Source of the DNA: Vulcanimicrobiota bacterium | GTDB lineage: Bacteria; Vulcanimicrobiota; Xenobia; Xenobiales; JADMJV01 | Length of the DNA stretch: 64,000 nt | Assembly: GCA_050250895.1 (NCBI GenBank) | Contig: JBFWNU010000007.1 | Span: forward strand, 1 to 64,000 | Direction: 5' to 3' | Shown: piece by piece, positions 21,813 to 52,095 of the stretch | Layout: every line of letters begins with the position of its first letter | Numbering within the stretch: position 1 is the first letter of the stretch | Notes under the pieces: model-generated | What the model was told of the DNA's origin: nothing | What the model saw: only the letters and a program-made list of their open reading frames with translations | The model's database searches: none | Translations under genes and position numbers: made by a program

Positions 21813-22328
21813 CTAAAAGCGCTCCAGCACGACGCGGCGAGTCAGGCTATGGGGTTGGGGATCCTCGGGCGGCTTGGCCTGATAGATCACGTCGAGATAG
21901 TCGGGCCGGGACTTGTCGCTGCCGCTGGGCACCTCGAATTTGAGACTCTCCCAGCTTTCGAGGCGCGCCAGCACCTGCAATTCACCAGCGCTGAACAACA
22001 GCACCTTTCCGTCCTGGACGGCGATGGTCGAGGCGGCCGGGTCGAGTTGCAGGGTGCGCCCTTTGCCGATCGTTTGCTCCGAGACCGAACTGAAGACGAT
22101 GGCATCGTTGTTGTAGGTCACAGCGTGCAAGACCGATGAGTTTACGTAGGTTTCGACCTTATTGAGTAAAGTGACGCCACGTCGGTACTGGTCCGAGTCC
22201 TGGTCACGCTTGTGGCTGACCTGGACGCCGTAGAGATAGAATCCCAGCACCAGCGTCATCAGAATGGCAAAGACCATCAGGACCACCAGCAACTCGGCCA
22301 GCGTGGTTCCGCGGGCCGGTTTCACCAC
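21813..22328 (-). CDS. Prepilin-type minor pilin
   Basis: RG|TTLAELLVVL class III signal peptide with E5. Confidence 0.8.
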   Translation of the reverse strand: MVKPARGTTLAELLVVLMVFAILMTLVLGFYLYGVQVSHKRDQDSDQYRRGVTLLNKVETYVNSSVLHAVTYNNDAIVFSSVSEQTIGKGRTLQLDPAASTIAVQDGKVLLFSAGELQVLARLESWESLKFEVPSGSDKSRPDYLDVIYQAKPPEDPQPHSLTRRVVLERF

Positions 22329-22657
22329 CCGAACTTGTCCCGCAACTCGTAGGTCTCGACCCGGTAACTTTGTTTGCCGTTCTTGTCTTCCCAGTCGGCG
22401 CGAGCGATGACTCGCACCAGTTCGGGCACCTCGGGGTGCTTGAGGCCGACTCCTTCACGTCTGGCCTTGGCGAGCTGGGCGGCGACCGATTGGCCGACCT
22501 CCTCGCGATGCACCTGCCGCTGCTCGAGTTTCTGGCCGCTGTGCATGAGTCTGATATGTAAGCTCATGTAACCGAAGAAGGCGATGCTGATGAAGAGGAT
22601 CGCAATCATCACTTCGGCGAGAGTGAAGGCGCGCCGCGGCTTTGGCATGCTGATCAT
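22322..22657 (-). CDS. Prepilin-type minor pilin (PilV-like)
   Basis: RRA|FTLAEVMIAIL class III signal peptide. Confidence 0.8.
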   Translation of the reverse strand: MISMPKPRRAFTLAEVMIAILFISIAFFGYMSLHIRLMHSGQKLEQRQVHREEVGQSVAAQLAKARREGVGLKHPEVPELVRVIARADWEDKNGKQSYRVETYELRDKFGW

Positions 22658-22675: not shown

Positions 22676-24193
22676 TCAGCCTGCCGGCACGACCACGATT
22701 TTGGATACTTTGACATCCTCATCGAGTTCGAGTTCCAGGCCCGGGGTTAAGACGACTTCTCCTTTGAGGTAGCTCTCCTTTATGTAGTTGTCGAAATCCC
22801 GGCGCAACCGGATGGAGTCGAGCGAGGTTCCGACACAAAGGCCCTTGTCGGTGCTGTAGAAGCTGTAGGTGGTTTCGATGGCCACCACTCGATCGCCCAC
22901 CAGGCTGAAGGTCAAGAAGTTGGCCGGGTAGGCCAGGCGGCGCAAGCCACTCGAGAGGGTGCGCGCGTCGGGCGGGCCGAGTTCGTTTTCCAGCTGCTTT
23001 TCGGACATTCCCAGCGTGAAGTTGCCCAGGCTCTTGCCCGGCACGACCTTGGCGTTGGAGCGACTGGGTCGGGTGCGATCCATGAGCATCGGCACGGCCT
23101 CGGCCAGCATCTCGGAGGTGCGGGTCGAGACCGGGTCTTCGTTGGAACCCGAATCCGGGTTGGCCCGGCGTAGCATGCGATAGATGCCGGCACTGTTGGC
23201 AGCCAGGCTATAGCAGTGGCCGGGAAAGCCACCCATGCGGCCCAATACGATGCCCACGAGCTCTCCACGCTCGTTGAGCAGAGGGCTGCCAGCGTCTCCG
23301 TCGCGAGTGACCCCCCGAAAGTGAAAGAAGCCTGGGCCGGCTGGCCCCATGGCCTGGGCCGACAAGGCATGGTAAGAGTTGGAATCGTTGGCGTCATGAT
23401 AGGCCAGGCGCTCTCCGCGGTTGGGGGCCTCGGGAGCTAGTGGGACCGCTCTATAGGAGCCGGGAGGTAGCTGGATCAAGGCCAGATCCAGAGTCGGGTC
23501 GCGACTGACCAGGGTGGCCGTGCCTAGACTACCGTTGACCCAGGTGCGACTGAGGTGGCTTGGCCCCAGTCGAGAGGAGCGGGTGATGGCCAGACCGGAC
23601 TCGTCCACTACCACTCCCGAAATATAGTTGCCTTCCAGGTCGGCCATGCGCACCAGGCCAGGGTTGGCCAGGCTCCACTGATTGTCGAGGGAACTCAGGG
23701 AAGGGCGCTTCTGCACATCGGGAAAGACCAGGGCCGAGCCGAGGTCTACGGCGGGTTTGGGGCTGTTGTGCGCCGTTTCTCGGGGCCGCCGTGGTTGTTC
23801 GGTCGTGCGCCTGGGACTGGCCGAAGGGGACGGAGAGGGCGTGGGTCTGGAGGGCTTGGTCTCAGGAGCGGCCGTGGCTTCAGGGAGCGGACTGACCGGC
23901 ATCGGCTGGCTGGGCAGGCGGCGCTCCTCTTTGGGTTTGCGGTGGTAGGCCAGGTAGGTGTAGTTAGGCGGCGCCGTGCGGCCATTGCTCTGGGATTGGC
24001 GCGCCTGGCGAACCCGCTCGCGGTATCCCTCGGCGGTACGTCGGTCGACGCGTTTGAGTTCCTGCTCCCTGGCTGGGCCCAGGAAGAGATTATAGGACAG
24101 GAGGAATCCGGCCAGAGCCGTGACCAGCGATACCGTTCCGGCGAAGACAAGGTGTTCTTTTCGGGGGAACTCTTCGTCGACGGGGATGTGCAC
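22676..24193 (-). CDS. Membrane-anchored trypsin-like (S1C) domain protein, degenerate catalytic triad
   Basis: N-terminal TM, Pro-rich linker, DLALI, GDAGSPLLNERGELVGI. Confidence 0.75.
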   Translation of the reverse strand: MHIPVDEEFPRKEHLVFAGTVSLVTALAGFLLSYNLFLGPAREQELKRVDRRTAEGYRERVRQARQSQSNGRTAPPNYTYLAYHRKPKEERRLPSQPMPVSPLPEATAAPETKPSRPTPSPSPSASPRRTTEQPRRPRETAHNSPKPAVDLGSALVFPDVQKRPSLSSLDNQWSLANPGLVRMADLEGNYISGVVVDESGLAITRSSRLGPSHLSRTWVNGSLGTATLVSRDPTLDLALIQLPPGSYRAVPLAPEAPNRGERLAYHDANDSNSYHALSAQAMGPAGPGFFHFRGVTRDGDAGSPLLNERGELVGIVLGRMGGFPGHCYSLAANSAGIYRMLRRANPDSGSNEDPVSTRTSEMLAEAVPMLMDRTRPSRSNAKVVPGKSLGNFTLGMSEKQLENELGPPDARTLSSGLRRLAYPANFLTFSLVGDRVVAIETTYSFYSTDKGLCVGTSLDSIRLRRDFDNYIKESYLKGEVVLTPGLELELDEDVKVSKIVVVPAG

Positions 24194-24622
24194 CAGAGTA
24201 TTGTAACTGAAGGATAGGAGCGGATCAATTCTGGACGCACCCGTGGCGATGTTCTGGGTCGACCCCTCTTTTCGAGCCTCAGGTTGCCTGGAGGTGAATA
24301 TGATTCACTCATTGTTCGACTCGGTGGGACCCGATGGAGGCAATAATCCTGGGGAGAAAGCGAACAGCGGCCTCAAGTTTTGCCACCGCTCGGCAAAAAA
24401 AAGTTTCGGCCGAATTGGTGGGAAAAAATTCCAGTTTGACCGCGGAATTTCATGGCCCCAGCCTGCCCCTCTGGAACCCGGTAACCTTGTCGGGCTCCGA
24501 CGTGGTAGATGTTCTCGGAAGGGCCGGGCCGGGGATGGTCGATAAAACGGTCGGTTGAGGGTGAGAATCGCTCAAGAATCCGTTGGTTATGGGAAGAATA
24601 ACTTTCAACTTTATCTTCCTCT

Positions 24623-24636
24623 CGAACACCTGTTGG
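24623..24636. promoter_or_regulatory. Putative Gram-positive-type LexA (SOS) box
   Basis: CGAAC-ACCT-GTTGG versus consensus CGAAC-N4-GTTCG; abuts the -35 of the promoter upstream of uvrA. Confidence 0.4.
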
Positions 24637-24637
24637 C

Positions 24638-24667
24638 TTGTATGCCCAGCGGCGCCGGTGCTATATT
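24638..24667 (+). promoter_or_regulatory. Sigma70-type promoter for the large structured RNA
   Basis: TTGTAT-N18-TATATT with extended -10 (TGc); predicted TSS about 24672-24674 coincides with the 5' closing-stem strand. Confidence 0.7.
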
Positions 24668-24672
24668 AACCA

Positions 24673-25640
24673 GGCAAGACCTCGAGCGAACGGAGGAACC
24701 AGTTACCCAACGCTAGACTGAAAGCTTCATAGTATCACGGTCATTAGACCGTTTGAGCATCGCGCACCTTCCTTCGGGAAGGAACGCAGCCCTTCGGGGC
24801 ACGCGGCTGGACTTCGGTCCAGTGCTCCTACCGCCAACCTCCGGGTTGGACGCTCACGGCGATACGTTCTACCCTGGCCTCTCCTGAGAGGCGCCTTTCC
24901 AGGCAGGGCTTCGGCCCTGGGGTAACCCGGCCTGCCAGGAGGCCGCGCCCACCACGGTGAGCGGATTTGCTTGCAAATAGGTTGGAACTGCCGGGGAGTG
25001 GGAAGTCATCGGACTTGTTCCGGTCTCCCCGCAACTCTTTGACTCCGGGATTCGTCCCGGCGAGACGCAGGCCTCGGCCCGCGATGTTTCACCACCGGGT
25101 CGCTTCGGTGACCCAGCCGCAGTCTTCTTCGGAAGACAGTCTTCTTCGGAAGACACGTCCTCTTCGGAGGACACGTCCTCTTCGGAGGACAGCTTTCTTC
25201 GGAAAGCAGCTCGTCGCTCAGACTCCGGTCTGCAGCGAGTTCAGGTTCGCCCTGAGCACCGAGTCTCCTAAGGGTCTTCGGACCCTCACCGCAAGATTCG
25301 CTCTAGCGGCGGGGGACGTCCACCCAGTGGCGGTTGAGCAGTTTGTTCCTCGGGACAGACAACCGTCTCGCTCCGGCGAGACACGCGGCACGGACTGTTC
25401 GCAGTCCAACGTCGACTTCGGTCGACACGACGCCTCGGCGTCAGACGAAGCTCGCTTCGTCAGGTGAAGCAGCTCTCGAACGCTCTCTTCGGAGGGTGCA
25501 AAGAGCGCTCAAGTCGGCTCGCCGACGTGCTAGAGCACCGAATCCTAGGCTCGGCGCGGACTTCTTCGGAAACCCGCAATCAGTCACCGCATAGGCCGCT
25601 TCGGCGGCTGGGTTAGGGCAAGTTCAAACGGGGTCTTGCC
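24673..25640 (+). ncRNA. Large (~970 nt) highly structured non-coding RNA of unknown family
   Basis: About 30 hairpins, mostly with UUCG/UCCG/CUCG loops; G-U pairs fix the + strand; 5' GGCAAGACCUCG pairs with 3' CGGGGUCUUGCC; bounded by a promoter and a U-tract. Confidence 0.8.
25122..25207 (+). repeat. Five tandem 16-nt UUCG hairpins
   Basis: GTCTTC-TTCG-GAAGAC x2, GTCCTC-TTCG-GAGGAC x2, GCTTTC-TTCG-GAAAGC; 1-2 nt linkers. Confidence 0.9.
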
Positions 25641-25652
25641 CTTTTTCTTTTT
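25615..25652 (+). terminator. Intrinsic terminator at the end of the large RNA
   Basis: AGGGCAAG-N12-CTTGCCCT followed by TTTTCTTTTT. Confidence 0.65.
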
Positions 25653-25655
25653 CCG

Positions 25656-28485
<2,830 letters not shown>

Positions 28486-28502
<17 letters not shown>

Positions 28503-51800: not shown

Positions 51801-51876
51801 GCCCTTGTAGCTCAATTGGCAGAGCATCCGCCTTGTAAGCGGAAGGTTGCCGGTTCGAGTCCGGCCCGGGGCTCCA
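51801..51876 (+). tRNA. tRNA-Thr(UGU)
   Basis: Cloverleaf; anticodon arm TCCGC-CTTGTAA-GCGGA; TTCGAGT loop; CCA end. Confidence 0.93.
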
Positions 51877-51899
51877 TTATTCCGCTCGCTCGTCGGGGC

Positions 51900-51928
51900 T
51901 TGACGATCGGTGACGGGCAAGCTATAAT
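51900..51928 (+). promoter_or_regulatory. Sigma70 promoter for tRNA-Gln/Glu
   Basis: TTGACG-N17-TATAAT. Confidence 0.85.
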
Positions 51929-51940
51929 CAACCACGAATT

Positions 51941-52014
51941 TGCCGGGTCGTCTAGTGGTAGGACAGCGGACTCTGGATCCGTATGCGAGGGTTCGAATCC
52001 TTCCCCGGCAGCCA
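51941..52014 (+). tRNA. tRNA-Gln(CUG)
   Basis: Anticodon arm GCGGA-CTCTGGA-TCCGT; U1-A72 first pair; CCA end. Confidence 0.95.
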
Positions 52015-52018
52015 TTAT

Positions 52019-52095
52019 GCCGCGTTGGTCTAGAGGCTTAGGACGCCGCCCTCTCACGGCGGAAATCACGGGTTCGAATCCCGTACGCGGTACCA
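52019..52095 (+). tRNA. tRNA-Glu(CUC)
   Basis: Anticodon arm CCGCC-CTCTCAC-GGCGG; CCA end. Confidence 0.95.

Follow-up and report, generated by a model that had tools for sequence, protein, structure and literature searches.

A size-plastic family of large structured RNAs in Ca. Xenobia, one member of which lies directly upstream of uvrA

Directly 5' of uvrA in the window, by which is meant the whole 64,000-nucleotide stretch of DNA that was analysed, there is a region (24673 to 25640) that is tiled with short hairpins capped by UUCG and similar tetraloops. This raises the question of whether the region is an RNA gene and, if it is, which part of the RNA matters and whether its position next to a DNA repair gene has a meaning. 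A preliminary description had taken it to be an abundant RNA of an undescribed class. The features on which the answer depends are, along the sequence, as follows.

24622 to 24640, forward strand: upstream box TCGAACACCTGTTGGCTTG, an imperfect inverted repeat CGAAC-N4-GTTGG that abuts and overlaps the -35
24638 to 24667, forward strand: promoter, with -35 TTGTAT (24638-24643), an 18-nt spacer and -10 TATATT (24662-24667)
24674 to 25639, forward strand: the RNA, 966 nt (968 with G24673 and C25640), both ends being common to the homologues
24674 to 24684, forward strand: 5' strand of helix P1, GCAAGACCUCG, pairing with 25629-25639
24685 to 24702, forward strand: invariant 5' strand AGCGAACGGAGGAACCAG, where RNA conservation within the family is highest
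24917 to 24944, forward strand: GUAA-capped hairpin (24917-24930), followed by a hairpin with CCAGGA in its loop
25120 to 25204, forward strand: five C(UUCG)G hairpins of 6 bp, repeated in tandem as units of 17-18 nt
25538 to 25554, forward strand: hairpin CCGA-AUCCUAGGC-UCGG, whose loop contains the palindrome CCUAGG
25610 to 25639, forward strand: conserved 3' strand GGGUUAGGGCAAGUUCAAAC, identified by alignment, then the 3' strand of P1, CGGGGUCUUGC (25629-25639)
25616 to 25652, forward strand: terminator, either the local hairpin GGGCAAG/CUUGCCC (25616-25622 with 25635-25641) or P1, then UUUUUCUUUUU at 25642-25652
25656 to 28502, forward strand: uvrA, with Pfam domains UvrA_inter and UvrA_DNA-bind

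All 14 of the hairpins listed in the preliminary description are present in their places. When a stem of at least 4 is required and G-U is permitted, the forward strand of the region carries 24 YYCG hairpins (16 UUCG, 3 UCCG, 4 CUCG and 1 CUUG), so that the earlier tally of about 18 UUCG, 3 UCCG and 5 CUCG loops is right for UCCG and slightly high for the other two. The forward strand of the entire window has 28 UUCG and 68 YYCG hairpins, and 1000 dinucleotide-preserving shuffles of the region give on average 0.20 UUCG hairpins (maximum 2) and 0.80 YYCG hairpins (maximum 5). Across both strands of the 9.5-Mb source genome (G000) there are 988 UUCG hairpins with a stem of at least 5, or 0.052 per strand-kb, 15 of which lie inside 828 nt of this region, and no comparable cluster is present elsewhere in the genome. 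The runner-up, at C6:378-380 kb, has 6 hairpins and proved to be a tandem-repeat ORF.

The minimum free energy fold of the region contains 33 hairpin loops, including 15 UUCG, 4 CUCG and 3 UCCG, and C-G closes 23 of its 29 tetraloops. The folding z-score that had been proposed as a check is -7.9 (-483.8 kcal/mol, 20 shuffles), with a nearly equal -7.8 on the minus strand, and because the minus strand folds almost as well the folding energy alone cannot choose between strands. The hexamer CTTCGG occurs 15 times in the region and its complement CCGAAG not once, which points to the forward strand, as does the orientation in which promoter and terminator have been conserved.

Transcription is placed to start approximately 7 nt 3' of the -10, at G24673 or G24674, and two metagenome contigs start at nucleotide 1-2 of the RNA. 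Of the sigma70 promoter and U tract said to bracket the element, the U tract (25642-25652) is clearly there and one follows the RNA 3' end in 20/20 aligned homologues; the promoter falls below a consensus scan, yet its position is conserved in all 24 homologous loci with upstream sequence, and the geometry TTGnnn-17/18-TAnnnT-7-G is retained in every aligned homologue. The box 5' of the promoter can be written CGAAC-N3-TGTTGGCTTG, where CGAAC and TGTTGGCTTG are invariant in 20/20 aligned promoters and in four further loci of family f3, and it may be operator-like. The exact box has only one further copy in the genome, at the promoter of an sRNA of about 140 nt.

The RNA is present in 7 RNA runs from 4 studies. 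Metatranscriptome contigs from the four studies cover 24685-25632, from which neither the strand nor the exact ends can be resolved; RNA contigs start at 24685-24690, and one contig of 948 nt falls entirely on 24685-25632. Their depth bears out the claim of abundance, with a summed contig depth (word depth, all contigs) that reaches 159,587 in runs other than that of the 948-nt contig, while the upstream flank (23800-24655) has zero RNA contig coverage in 4/4 runs. A read-through contig spans 25544-25900 at approximately 1-10% of the RNA depth. The locus thus has a conserved promoter of its own, an intrinsic terminator of its own, and RNA contigs limited to the interval, albeit contigs that resolve neither strand nor exact ends, as would be expected of an independent ncRNA gene.

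It might still be argued that there is no RNA gene here, and that the region consists of clustered DNA palindromes of the REP/MITE type or codes for a protein. The equal z-scores of the two strands would agree with this, as would a 166-aa ORF at 24967-25467. Dispersed copies, which the preliminary description had named as evidence that would speak against an RNA, are not seen: the RNA is single copy, its one BLAST match in the genome being to itself. There are zero matches among phages, plasmids and viral contigs, on which ground a mobile or viral origin was also rejected. The asymmetry of CTTCGG between strands (15 vs 0) and the very high RNA-only coverage, ending at the promoter, point the same way. 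The ORF has no Pfam match, has no tblastn match in the family better than E = 0.15, and carries 1-nt insertions and deletions in natural variants. With copy number, strand, coverage and ORF data already contradicting the repeat or coding reading, next to no probability attaches to it; the single copy, the conserved promoter and terminator and the lack of conserved translation are those of an RNA gene, as first described.

Compensatory changes above controls identify the RNA as structured. In 9 short forms of 278-330 nt, 97.2% of cells pair and 16 pairs are changed on both sides, against 5.9±1.7 in shuffles (0/500 reach 16) and 1-4 in slid controls, the set being 9 sequences with 75% mean column identity, whose relatedness inflates shuffle tests. 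Between G000 and its same-genus homologue there are 13 compensated pairs, and strain variants show a G-C to A-U double change at 24907/24916. These data show a noncoding RNA gene of about 966 nt that stands alone, is structured and highly expressed, and extends from a start near 24673/24674 to the terminator, where it ends at about 25640-25652.

The BLAST of related genomes that had been suggested earlier found homologues in 12 of 41 relatives. In all, 26 homologous loci were found, every one within a single Eremiobacterota class (Ca. Xenobia). An exact-pattern search of 185,579 species genomes gave 10 loci, metagenomes gave 7, and R1, a sequence-only profile of the promoter and RNA 5' end, found the RNA in 17 of 44 genomes of the class; it is on the exact pattern and R1 that the distribution given here rests. 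In genus g4 there is also a paralogue (B) of 978-1025 nt, which ends in two terminators and which was the only thing matched, in 3/401 genomes, by a pattern with one extra N. The homologues range from 278 to about 1,180 nt and have 0-16 UUCG hairpins, with about 250 to about 1,150 nt between the conserved ends, and the middle 500 nt of the 966-nt RNA do not align even with the same-genus homologue. What all members have is the box promoter, a helix joining the ends, the purine-rich strands and the U-tract terminator. The approximately 30 tetraloop hairpins by which the class was to be defined do not define it, since homologues of 278-330 nt have 0-3 UUCG hairpins and 904-960-nt forms of another family have 0-1.

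Nor is the family a catalogued one. The region has no match among the 4227 families of Rfam 15, which include OLE, GOLLD, ROOL, raiA and HEARO, even at E<=10, where a strong match would have told against novelty, and in the scan of the whole window no match falls in the region at gathering scores, the best sub-threshold one scoring 21 bits where the cut-off is 45. Nothing relevant came from scanning 11 homologous loci (E<=1) and 3 other loci. The signatures of RNase P, tmRNA and SRP RNA are lacking here, as had been noted, and their models (RF00010, RF00023 and RF00169) match elsewhere in G000 at 305, 181 and 57 bits. No description of the RNA came up in the texts returned by a full-text literature search. 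Together with the homologues this shows that the RNA belongs to an uncatalogued, size-plastic family of large ncRNAs found only in Ca. Xenobia, and the suggestion of an undescribed class is upheld.

The conserved part of the family is its terminal module, which the preliminary description did not single out. P1 is a 10-12-bp helix that unites the 5' and 3' ends and covaries across genera, with C-G or U-A at position 2 and U-A, U-G or C-G at position 9. Beside it lie purine-rich strands common to all members, GGAGGRAYC on the 5' side and AAG..GUUC on the 3' side. Within the 5' strand, ACGGAGGAACC is invariant in 20/20 aligned homologues, and the family-f3 versions of the strand are AUGGAGGAAUC, AUGGAGGGACC or ACGGAGGGACC; in the 3' strand GGTCTT is invariant and AAG..GTTC nearly so. 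Family f1 has inner motifs as well. The GNRA-capped hairpin motif GGGKRACC is present in G000 and in 9/9 short forms and is absent from G001, M034 and M035; CCAGGA is found in 13/13 f1-type members, in the loop of a covarying hairpin in the 9 short forms; and the loop motif UCCUAGG recurs in all 12 other f1-type members on different stems. In one same-genus homologue it reads UCUAGA, so that the palindrome has been retained through a double change. None of these inner motifs (GNRA cap, CCAGGA and UCCUAGG loops) is recognisable in families f2 and f3.

The ATG of uvrA is 3 nt past the U tract, too close for the gene to have a separate promoter in between. Some parts of uvrA beyond 25940 are without RNA contig cover. 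Of the 24 loci with flanks, 4 are followed immediately by uvrA and 8 by radA, on the same strand. The other 12, among them the three loci of g4 paralogue B, lack an immediately following repair gene. In three more genomes, of g2, uvrA is found on the same strand at a distance of 5-8 kb downstream. The 12 uvrA/radA placements may go back to as few as two ancestral arrangements.

The Cheo-type box of LexA has the consensus GAAC-N4-GTTC. A conserved box of the form GAAC-N4-TTTC or GAAT-N4-GTTC precedes the best lexA homologue (lexA1) in 6 genomes, and boxes CGAACACTTGTTCC and CGAACAGGCGTTCC precede uvrA in two g4 genomes. There is no box in the recA upstream regions of 5 genomes, and no perfect one upstream of the four LexA_DNA_bind genes or recA in G000; in the relatives the degenerate conserved box is present before lexA1 only. 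G000 has 15 perfect intergenic GAAC-N4-GTTC sites, and the ORFs next to 10 of these, which were scanned with Pfam, include EF-G, peptide deformylase, PilZ, GGDEF and thymidine kinase but no repair gene. For a LexA-repressed gene the very deep contigs in ordinary sludge and wastewater RNA would be unexpected, and the SOS reading of the box is weak. A link between the RNA and DNA repair is plausible.

The explanation that we favour, by a small margin over its being wrong in some part, is of an ncRNA family with a working terminal module, hairpin expansions and a tie to DNA repair. From its conservation, the terminal module would be the working part, joined in family f1 by the inner hairpins with the GNRA cap, the CCAGGA loop and the UCCUAGG loop, and its most likely binding partner is a protein or a second RNA. 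In G000 the C(UUCG)G hairpins would be expansion segments, added through local duplication of the kind suggested by the five-unit array. Tandem Repeats Finder gives this array a period of 18, 4.9 copies and 88% matches, and its copy number varies between strains, because one RNA contig is without one 17-nt unit. Such hairpins may be kept only for their stability as helices, by which they would maintain the fold and shield the RNA, and this would explain its accumulation; nuclease resistance is likewise inferred from the UUCG caps and the abundance. The tie to DNA repair is the less sure part. The RNA is directly 5' of uvrA or radA in half of the loci, where these genes would be reachable only by read-through of its terminator, and the operator-like box is similar to boxes of the GAAC-N4-GTTC kind that relatives have at their lexA and uvrA promoters. 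One regulated promoter might then have two outputs, one being a plentiful RNA that acts in trans and the other a small flow of mRNA for the repair gene. A bolder version, in which a new class of giant, size-plastic RNA serves the DNA-damage response, the module acts with or regulates UvrA/RadA repair, the body grows and shrinks by hairpin duplication and the palindromic loop may assemble particles, is unlikely as a whole.

Read-through could instead be the point of the RNA. It would then be a giant cis-acting 5' leader or attenuator that senses a signal and sets passage through the terminator into uvrA or radA, the abundant terminated RNA being a by-product. The start codon 3 nt past the U tract here, and 8-25 nt past the RNA 3' end in six radA loci, too near in either case to fit a promoter, is in keeping with this, as are the read-through contig (25544-25900) and the ability of the RNA 5' end to form pairs with the 3' half of the local hairpin of the terminator, from which two alternative folds result. 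Both of these leave a helix before the U tract, however, and an anti-terminator is not obvious in either. No repair gene immediately follows the three paralogue-B loci of g4 or several of the short forms, the RNA remains intact in g2 where genes have been inserted between it and uvrA, and such extreme abundance and size plasticity are unusual in leaders, all of which makes a leader somewhat unlikely. A sponge or decoy that titrates an RNA-binding protein or sRNA, which the preliminary description had proposed alongside a scaffold, is quite improbable. The candidate partner is the sRNA of about 140 nt (G000:C1:1077337-1077478), in which CUGGUUCCUCC and UUCGCUC are the complements of GGAGGAACCAG and GAGCGAA in the invariant 5' strand; these two stretches are conserved in a same-genus genome, and the two promoters carry the only exact copies of the box in the genome. 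The sRNA was nevertheless found only in this genus (exact matches in 2/41 genomes, the others at noise level by BLAST and pattern), and 14/500 shuffles reach its duplex energy, a marginal result. RNAduplex run on the whole RNA gave a long-loop duplex that is meaningless. GGA motifs do occur in conserved loops, but UUCG loops are poor binding sites for proteins or RNA, and of the 12 RNA-bearing genomes searched only 4 have CsrA, which also occurs in 2 genomes that lack the RNA. A CsrA sponge is disfavoured, CsrA being patchy and not tracking the RNA.

There are two other readings. Copies of the RNA might join through the palindromic loop into a self-assembling RNA-only particle, as reported for OLE, ROOL and GOLLD. 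The CCUAGG loop is conserved in f1 over different stems, with UCUAGA in one genome, a compact fold is suggested by the GNRA cap and by junctions that are conserved, and size and abundance are like those of OLE, ROOL and GOLLD (PMC12286853). Against this, the double change is a single one (n = 1), the palindromic loop was not found in families f2 and f3, and none of the three RNAs has sequence or model similarity to this one; the particle is thus very improbable. The chance that the RNA is 6S- or Ms1-like and binds RNA polymerase is slighter still, although its abundance, the long helix with internal loops by which it is closed and the lack of linkage to any one gene would fit. A separate full-length 6S match above the Rfam cut-off (46.9-54.9 bits) is present in 6/6 RNA-bearing g2 genomes, one at C1:76298-76466 in G000 scores 30.7 bits, below the cut-off, and RF00013 has no match at the RNA locus at E<=10.

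To our knowledge only a handful of large structured bacterial ncRNAs have been found, each of which opened new biology. In several metatranscriptomes of wastewater and sludge the present RNA ranks with the deepest contigs, and hardly any molecular biology exists for the candidate phylum to which its source belongs. That lengths from 278 to about 1,180 nt are built around the same core means that a minimal functional unit has already been defined by evolution, and its recurrence in front of two distinct repair genes, downstream of a box that is invariant and operator-like, offers concrete and testable hypotheses. From the tandem C(UUCG)G arrays one can see how hairpin duplication lets an RNA grow, and they may also serve as natural stabilising modules.

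Among known systems, 6S RNA (RF00013) and Ms1 are also abundant, stable and closed by pairing of their 5' and 3' ends, but the RNA described here is 1.5-6 times longer and has its conserved loops by the termini rather than in a central bubble. Bacterial Y RNA (YrlA), which acts with Ro/Rsr, likewise has paired termini and is connected with the biology of UV and DNA damage; in contrast, this RNA is much larger and has no tRNA-like module, and its genome has no TROVE/Ro gene. A Y RNA was rejected because PF05731 (TROVE/Ro) has no match in the 99.6%-complete G000, control genomes being positive. CsrB and RsmZ share repeated hairpins and several GGA motifs, but the loops here are UUCG and not ANGGA, and CsrA is missing from 8/12 of the RNA-bearing genomes searched. 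OLE, GOLLD, ROOL and raiA are similar in being several hundred to about 1,000 nt long, rich in helices, highly expressed and lineage-restricted, and in having had no known biochemical function at discovery. The present RNA differs in that it matches no Rfam model, has no phage association, spans a fourfold length range within one family, and is conserved in a terminal module rather than throughout. In rRNA with its expansion segments, RNase P RNA and telomerase RNA, a small functional core carries lineage-specific helices in which pairing is kept and sequence is not. The RNA has no homology to these, and its own additions are mostly simple tetraloop hairpins, partly in tandem.

The large RNA directly 5' of uvrA (window 24674-25639, + strand, 966 nt) comes from a noncoding gene that is transcribed and present in single copy. 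Eighteen public runs from 8 studies contain the stretch, 7 of the runs (4 studies) being metatranscriptomes. One metatranscriptome run from each of the 4 studies was mapped on window 23800-27000 as assembled contigs, which give neither the strand nor the exact ends of the transcript. Cover by RNA contigs starts at 24685-24690 and ends at about 25632, with a single 948 nt contig corresponding entirely to 24685-25632, and the summed contig depth (word depth over all contigs) is up to 159,587 and 60,742 in two of the runs. There are no RNA contigs at 23800-24655 in any of the four runs, and this silence of the upstream flank argues against DNA carry-over. A contig at a depth of about 2,200 spans 25544-25900, which means that some transcription continues into uvrA. 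A longer relative is carried by two metagenome contigs (1171 and 1172 nt), whose first base is nt 1 or 2 of the RNA and which end a few bases before its 3' end.

The preliminary description had allowed that the stretch might be a dispersed repeat or a conserved translated ORF. It is present as a single copy in its own genome, and the phage, plasmid and viral collections hold no match to it. The internal 166 aa ORF has no Pfam match and no conserved translation, with a best tblastn E-value of 0.15 across the family, and is broken by 1 nt insertions and deletions in natural variants among the RNA contigs.

All of the tetraloop hairpins listed previously are present at the positions given for them. 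On the + strand of 24673-25640 there are 16 UUCG, 3 UCCG, 4 CUCG and 1 CUUG hairpins (stems of 4 or more pairs, counting G-U), which is 24 of the 68 hairpins with such YYCG loops on this strand of the 64 kb window. In 1000 dinucleotide-preserving shuffles of the region the mean is 0.20 for UUCG hairpins (maximum 2) and 0.80 for YYCG hairpins (maximum 5). With stems of at least 5 pairs there are 15 UUCG hairpins within 828 nt, the background in this 9.5 Mb, 63% G+C genome being 0.052 per strand-kb. The second-best UUCG cluster in the source genome (G000) has 6 hairpins and is inside a long minus-strand tandem-repeat ORF (G000:C6:378300-380000), with units of ~120 and ~60 nt, the repeats of which generate GGCTTCGGCC hairpins.

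The minimum free energy fold of the large RNA contains 33 hairpin loops, of which 22 are YYCG, and a C-G pair closes 23 of its 29 tetraloops. The folding energies are far below those of shuffled sequences, with z = -7.9 and -7.8 on the two strands; since both score alike, folding energy does not decide the strand. CTTCGG occurs 15 times in the region and its complement not at all, and this asymmetry, alongside the conserved promoter and terminator, points to the + strand.

BLAST against 40 relatives gives matches restricted to the two ends of the RNA. The exact 5' motif is present in 10 of 185,579 species genomes and in 7 metagenome contigs. The genome titles name Xenobia, Eremiobacteraeota or Vulcanimicrobiota, apart from two given as 'bacterium' only and three as 'uncultured Burkholderiales'. 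RNA-bearing relatives with this last title (L025, L028, L029) cluster with genomes whose titles read Xenobia or Eremiobacterota and are probably mislabelled. Of the 44 genomes of the class, 17 match a sequence profile of the promoter and 5' end; they belong to genera g1, g2 (6/6), g4 (4/5), g8 (3/4) and g9. The profile found nothing in genera g5, g6 and g7 or families f4 and f5, and g3 has a single weak, apparently spurious match. In total there are 26 loci, counting the paralogue in g4, where types A and B are found.

Lengths of the RNA across the family
g2 and three metagenome contigs: 278-330 nt
g9: 479 nt
G001, of the same genus as the source genome: 725 nt
g4 type A: 741-747 nt
g8: 904-960 nt
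Source genome: 966 nt
g4 type B: 978-1025 nt
Two transcript-like contigs: about 1,180 nt

The ends form a conserved terminal module. The promoter geometry is conserved (TTGnnn, a 17-18 nt spacer, TAnnnT and a further 7 nt before the first G), including in the family f3 loci, and every one of the 24 loci with upstream sequence has an unchanged CGAAC-N3-TGTTGGCTTG in front of it. The two ends of the RNA are joined by helix P1, GCAAGACCUCG pairing with CGGGGUCUUGC, with compensated changes at position 2 (C-G or U-A) and position 9 (U-A, U-G or C-G), and with inner pairs that vary among g2, g8 and g9. Conserved strands adjoin P1 on the 5' side (..GCGRACGGAGGAACC..) and 3' side (..AGGGCAAGUUC..), with a 4 bp GRAC/GUUC helix between them, and the U tract at the 3' end is conserved across the family.

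Family f1 has four additional inner elements, all common to the large RNA of the source genome and the 300 nt forms: a GNRA-capped hairpin (in the source genome and nine short forms, with none seen in the three remaining members of g1 type), hairpins with CCAGGA in the loop and with the loop UCCUAGG, and the strand CCCACNAC (source genome and 8 of 9 short forms). In the consensus fold of the nine short forms 97.2% of cells pair, and 16 pairs are changed on both sides, against 5.9±1.7 in shuffles (0/500 reach 16) and 1-4 when the partners are slid.

Compared with G001, the first 366 nt have 66% identity with 13 compensated pairs and the last 100 nt have 74% in alignment, and no alignment is obtained over the central 500 nt, which contain the hairpin arrays. 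Within this body is a tandem array.

25120-25204, + strand: tandem array of five 17-18 nt units

Exactly one of these units is missing from one RNA contig. Strain variants exchange UUCG, UCCG and CUCG loops at 24774, 24911, 25225, 25417 and 25518 and replace G-C with A-U at stem pair 24907/24916, and one hairpin capped by AUUA in the source genome has UUCG in G001. Pairing and stable caps are retained but sequence and number are not, which would suggest that the C(UUCG)G-type hairpins are stabilising expansion segments rather than binding sites. The number of UUCG hairpins is 16 in the source genome, 7 in G001, 6-10 in the long g1-like and type B forms, and 0-3 in all others. The array that had been taken to define the class is real, but is a lineage-specific elaboration.

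In the source genome the uvrA start lies 3 nt beyond the U tract, and G001, G004 and one metagenome contig likewise have this gene directly 3' of the RNA. In all 6 g4 type A loci radA/Sms is directly downstream, 8-25 nt away, as it is in G035 and G039. One or other gene directly follows the RNA in 12 of the 24 loci for which flanks are available. In three genomes (G002, G008 and G010) uvrA is 5-8 kb downstream in the same orientation, separated from the RNA by an alpha/beta hydrolase gene or others, and the type B and two g8 loci have different neighbours. The association spans two different repair genes but may rest on as few as two ancestral arrangements. On one g4 contig (G020:C103) a type B RNA and uvrA are ~5 kb apart and convergent, which hints that type B derives from a copy linked to uvrA, and type A from one linked to radA. 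The uvrA of G008 (L088/L089, G008:C62:35546-36504) is matched by two overlapping segments that lie in different reading frames, with 166 and 856 aa open, possibly through a frameshift or assembly error. Diverging from the RNA promoter is a gene for a 505 aa trypsin-like peptidase (22676-24193, -), next to a pair of small ORFs carrying pilin-like prokaryotic N-terminal methylation motifs (21813-22657, -); elsewhere in the window are three consecutive tRNA genes (51801-52092, +).

The box before the promoter resembles the Gram-positive LexA (Cheo) box. Related boxes are present ~60 nt before the ATG of uvrA in two g4 genomes that have no RNA in front of this gene (CGAACACTTGTTCC or CGAACAGGCGTTCC), and at about -120 of the best lexA homologue in six genomes (GAAC-N4-TTTC in g1 and g4, GAAT-N4-GTTC in g2), as might be expected of an SOS operator. 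However, the recA upstream regions examined have no such box, and the 15 perfect intergenic GAAC-N4-GTTC sites in the source genome have neighbours including EF-G, peptide deformylase, PilZ, GGDEF and thymidine kinase, with no repair gene among 10 adjoining ORFs checked. The large RNA is also very abundant in ordinary samples, and an SOS (LexA) operator seems rather doubtful. The box is treated here as a putative operator. The source genome has four LexA_DNA_bind genes (C7:239773, C1:1610160, C1:2184916, C7:361651), three with their own distinct palindromic operators upstream, such as GTGCAC-type repeats; C7:361651 has AGACATTTGTCT twice upstream.

The source genome has the box in exact form at just one other place, C1:1077286, where it precedes a perfect sigma70-type promoter, TTGACA-17-TAGAAT.

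G000:C1:1077286-1077478, outside the window: box, promoter and ~140 nt sRNA gene with a strong terminator

Two segments of this sRNA, CUGGUUCCUCC and UUCGCUC (11+7 nt), are the complement of stretches in the large RNA's invariant 5' strand, and both are conserved in G001. The sRNA was not found outside the genus, and the duplex energy is matched by 14 of 500 shuffles; as a possible partner it is a lead, not a finding.

No Rfam family matches the large RNA or the homologous loci scanned, and RNase P RNA, tmRNA and SRP RNA are located elsewhere in the source genome, in agreement with the lack of their signatures noted before. 6S RNA has its own separate locus, above cut-off in 6/6 g2 genomes. 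A Y RNA would be expected to accompany a Ro/TROVE gene, of which none was found in the source genome, and a CsrA sponge to accompany CsrA, which was found in just 4 of the 12 genomes searched that bear the RNA. The more general scaffold or sponge role proposed earlier is a candidate function. Titles and the openings of abstracts in the literature contain no description of this RNA, and at that level the proposal of an undescribed class is upheld. Set beside these known classes, the large RNA represents a genuinely new family of large, structured ncRNAs, very highly expressed and recurrently sited before uvrA or radA, with an unusual architecture in which a conserved terminal module encloses a freely expandable hairpin body.
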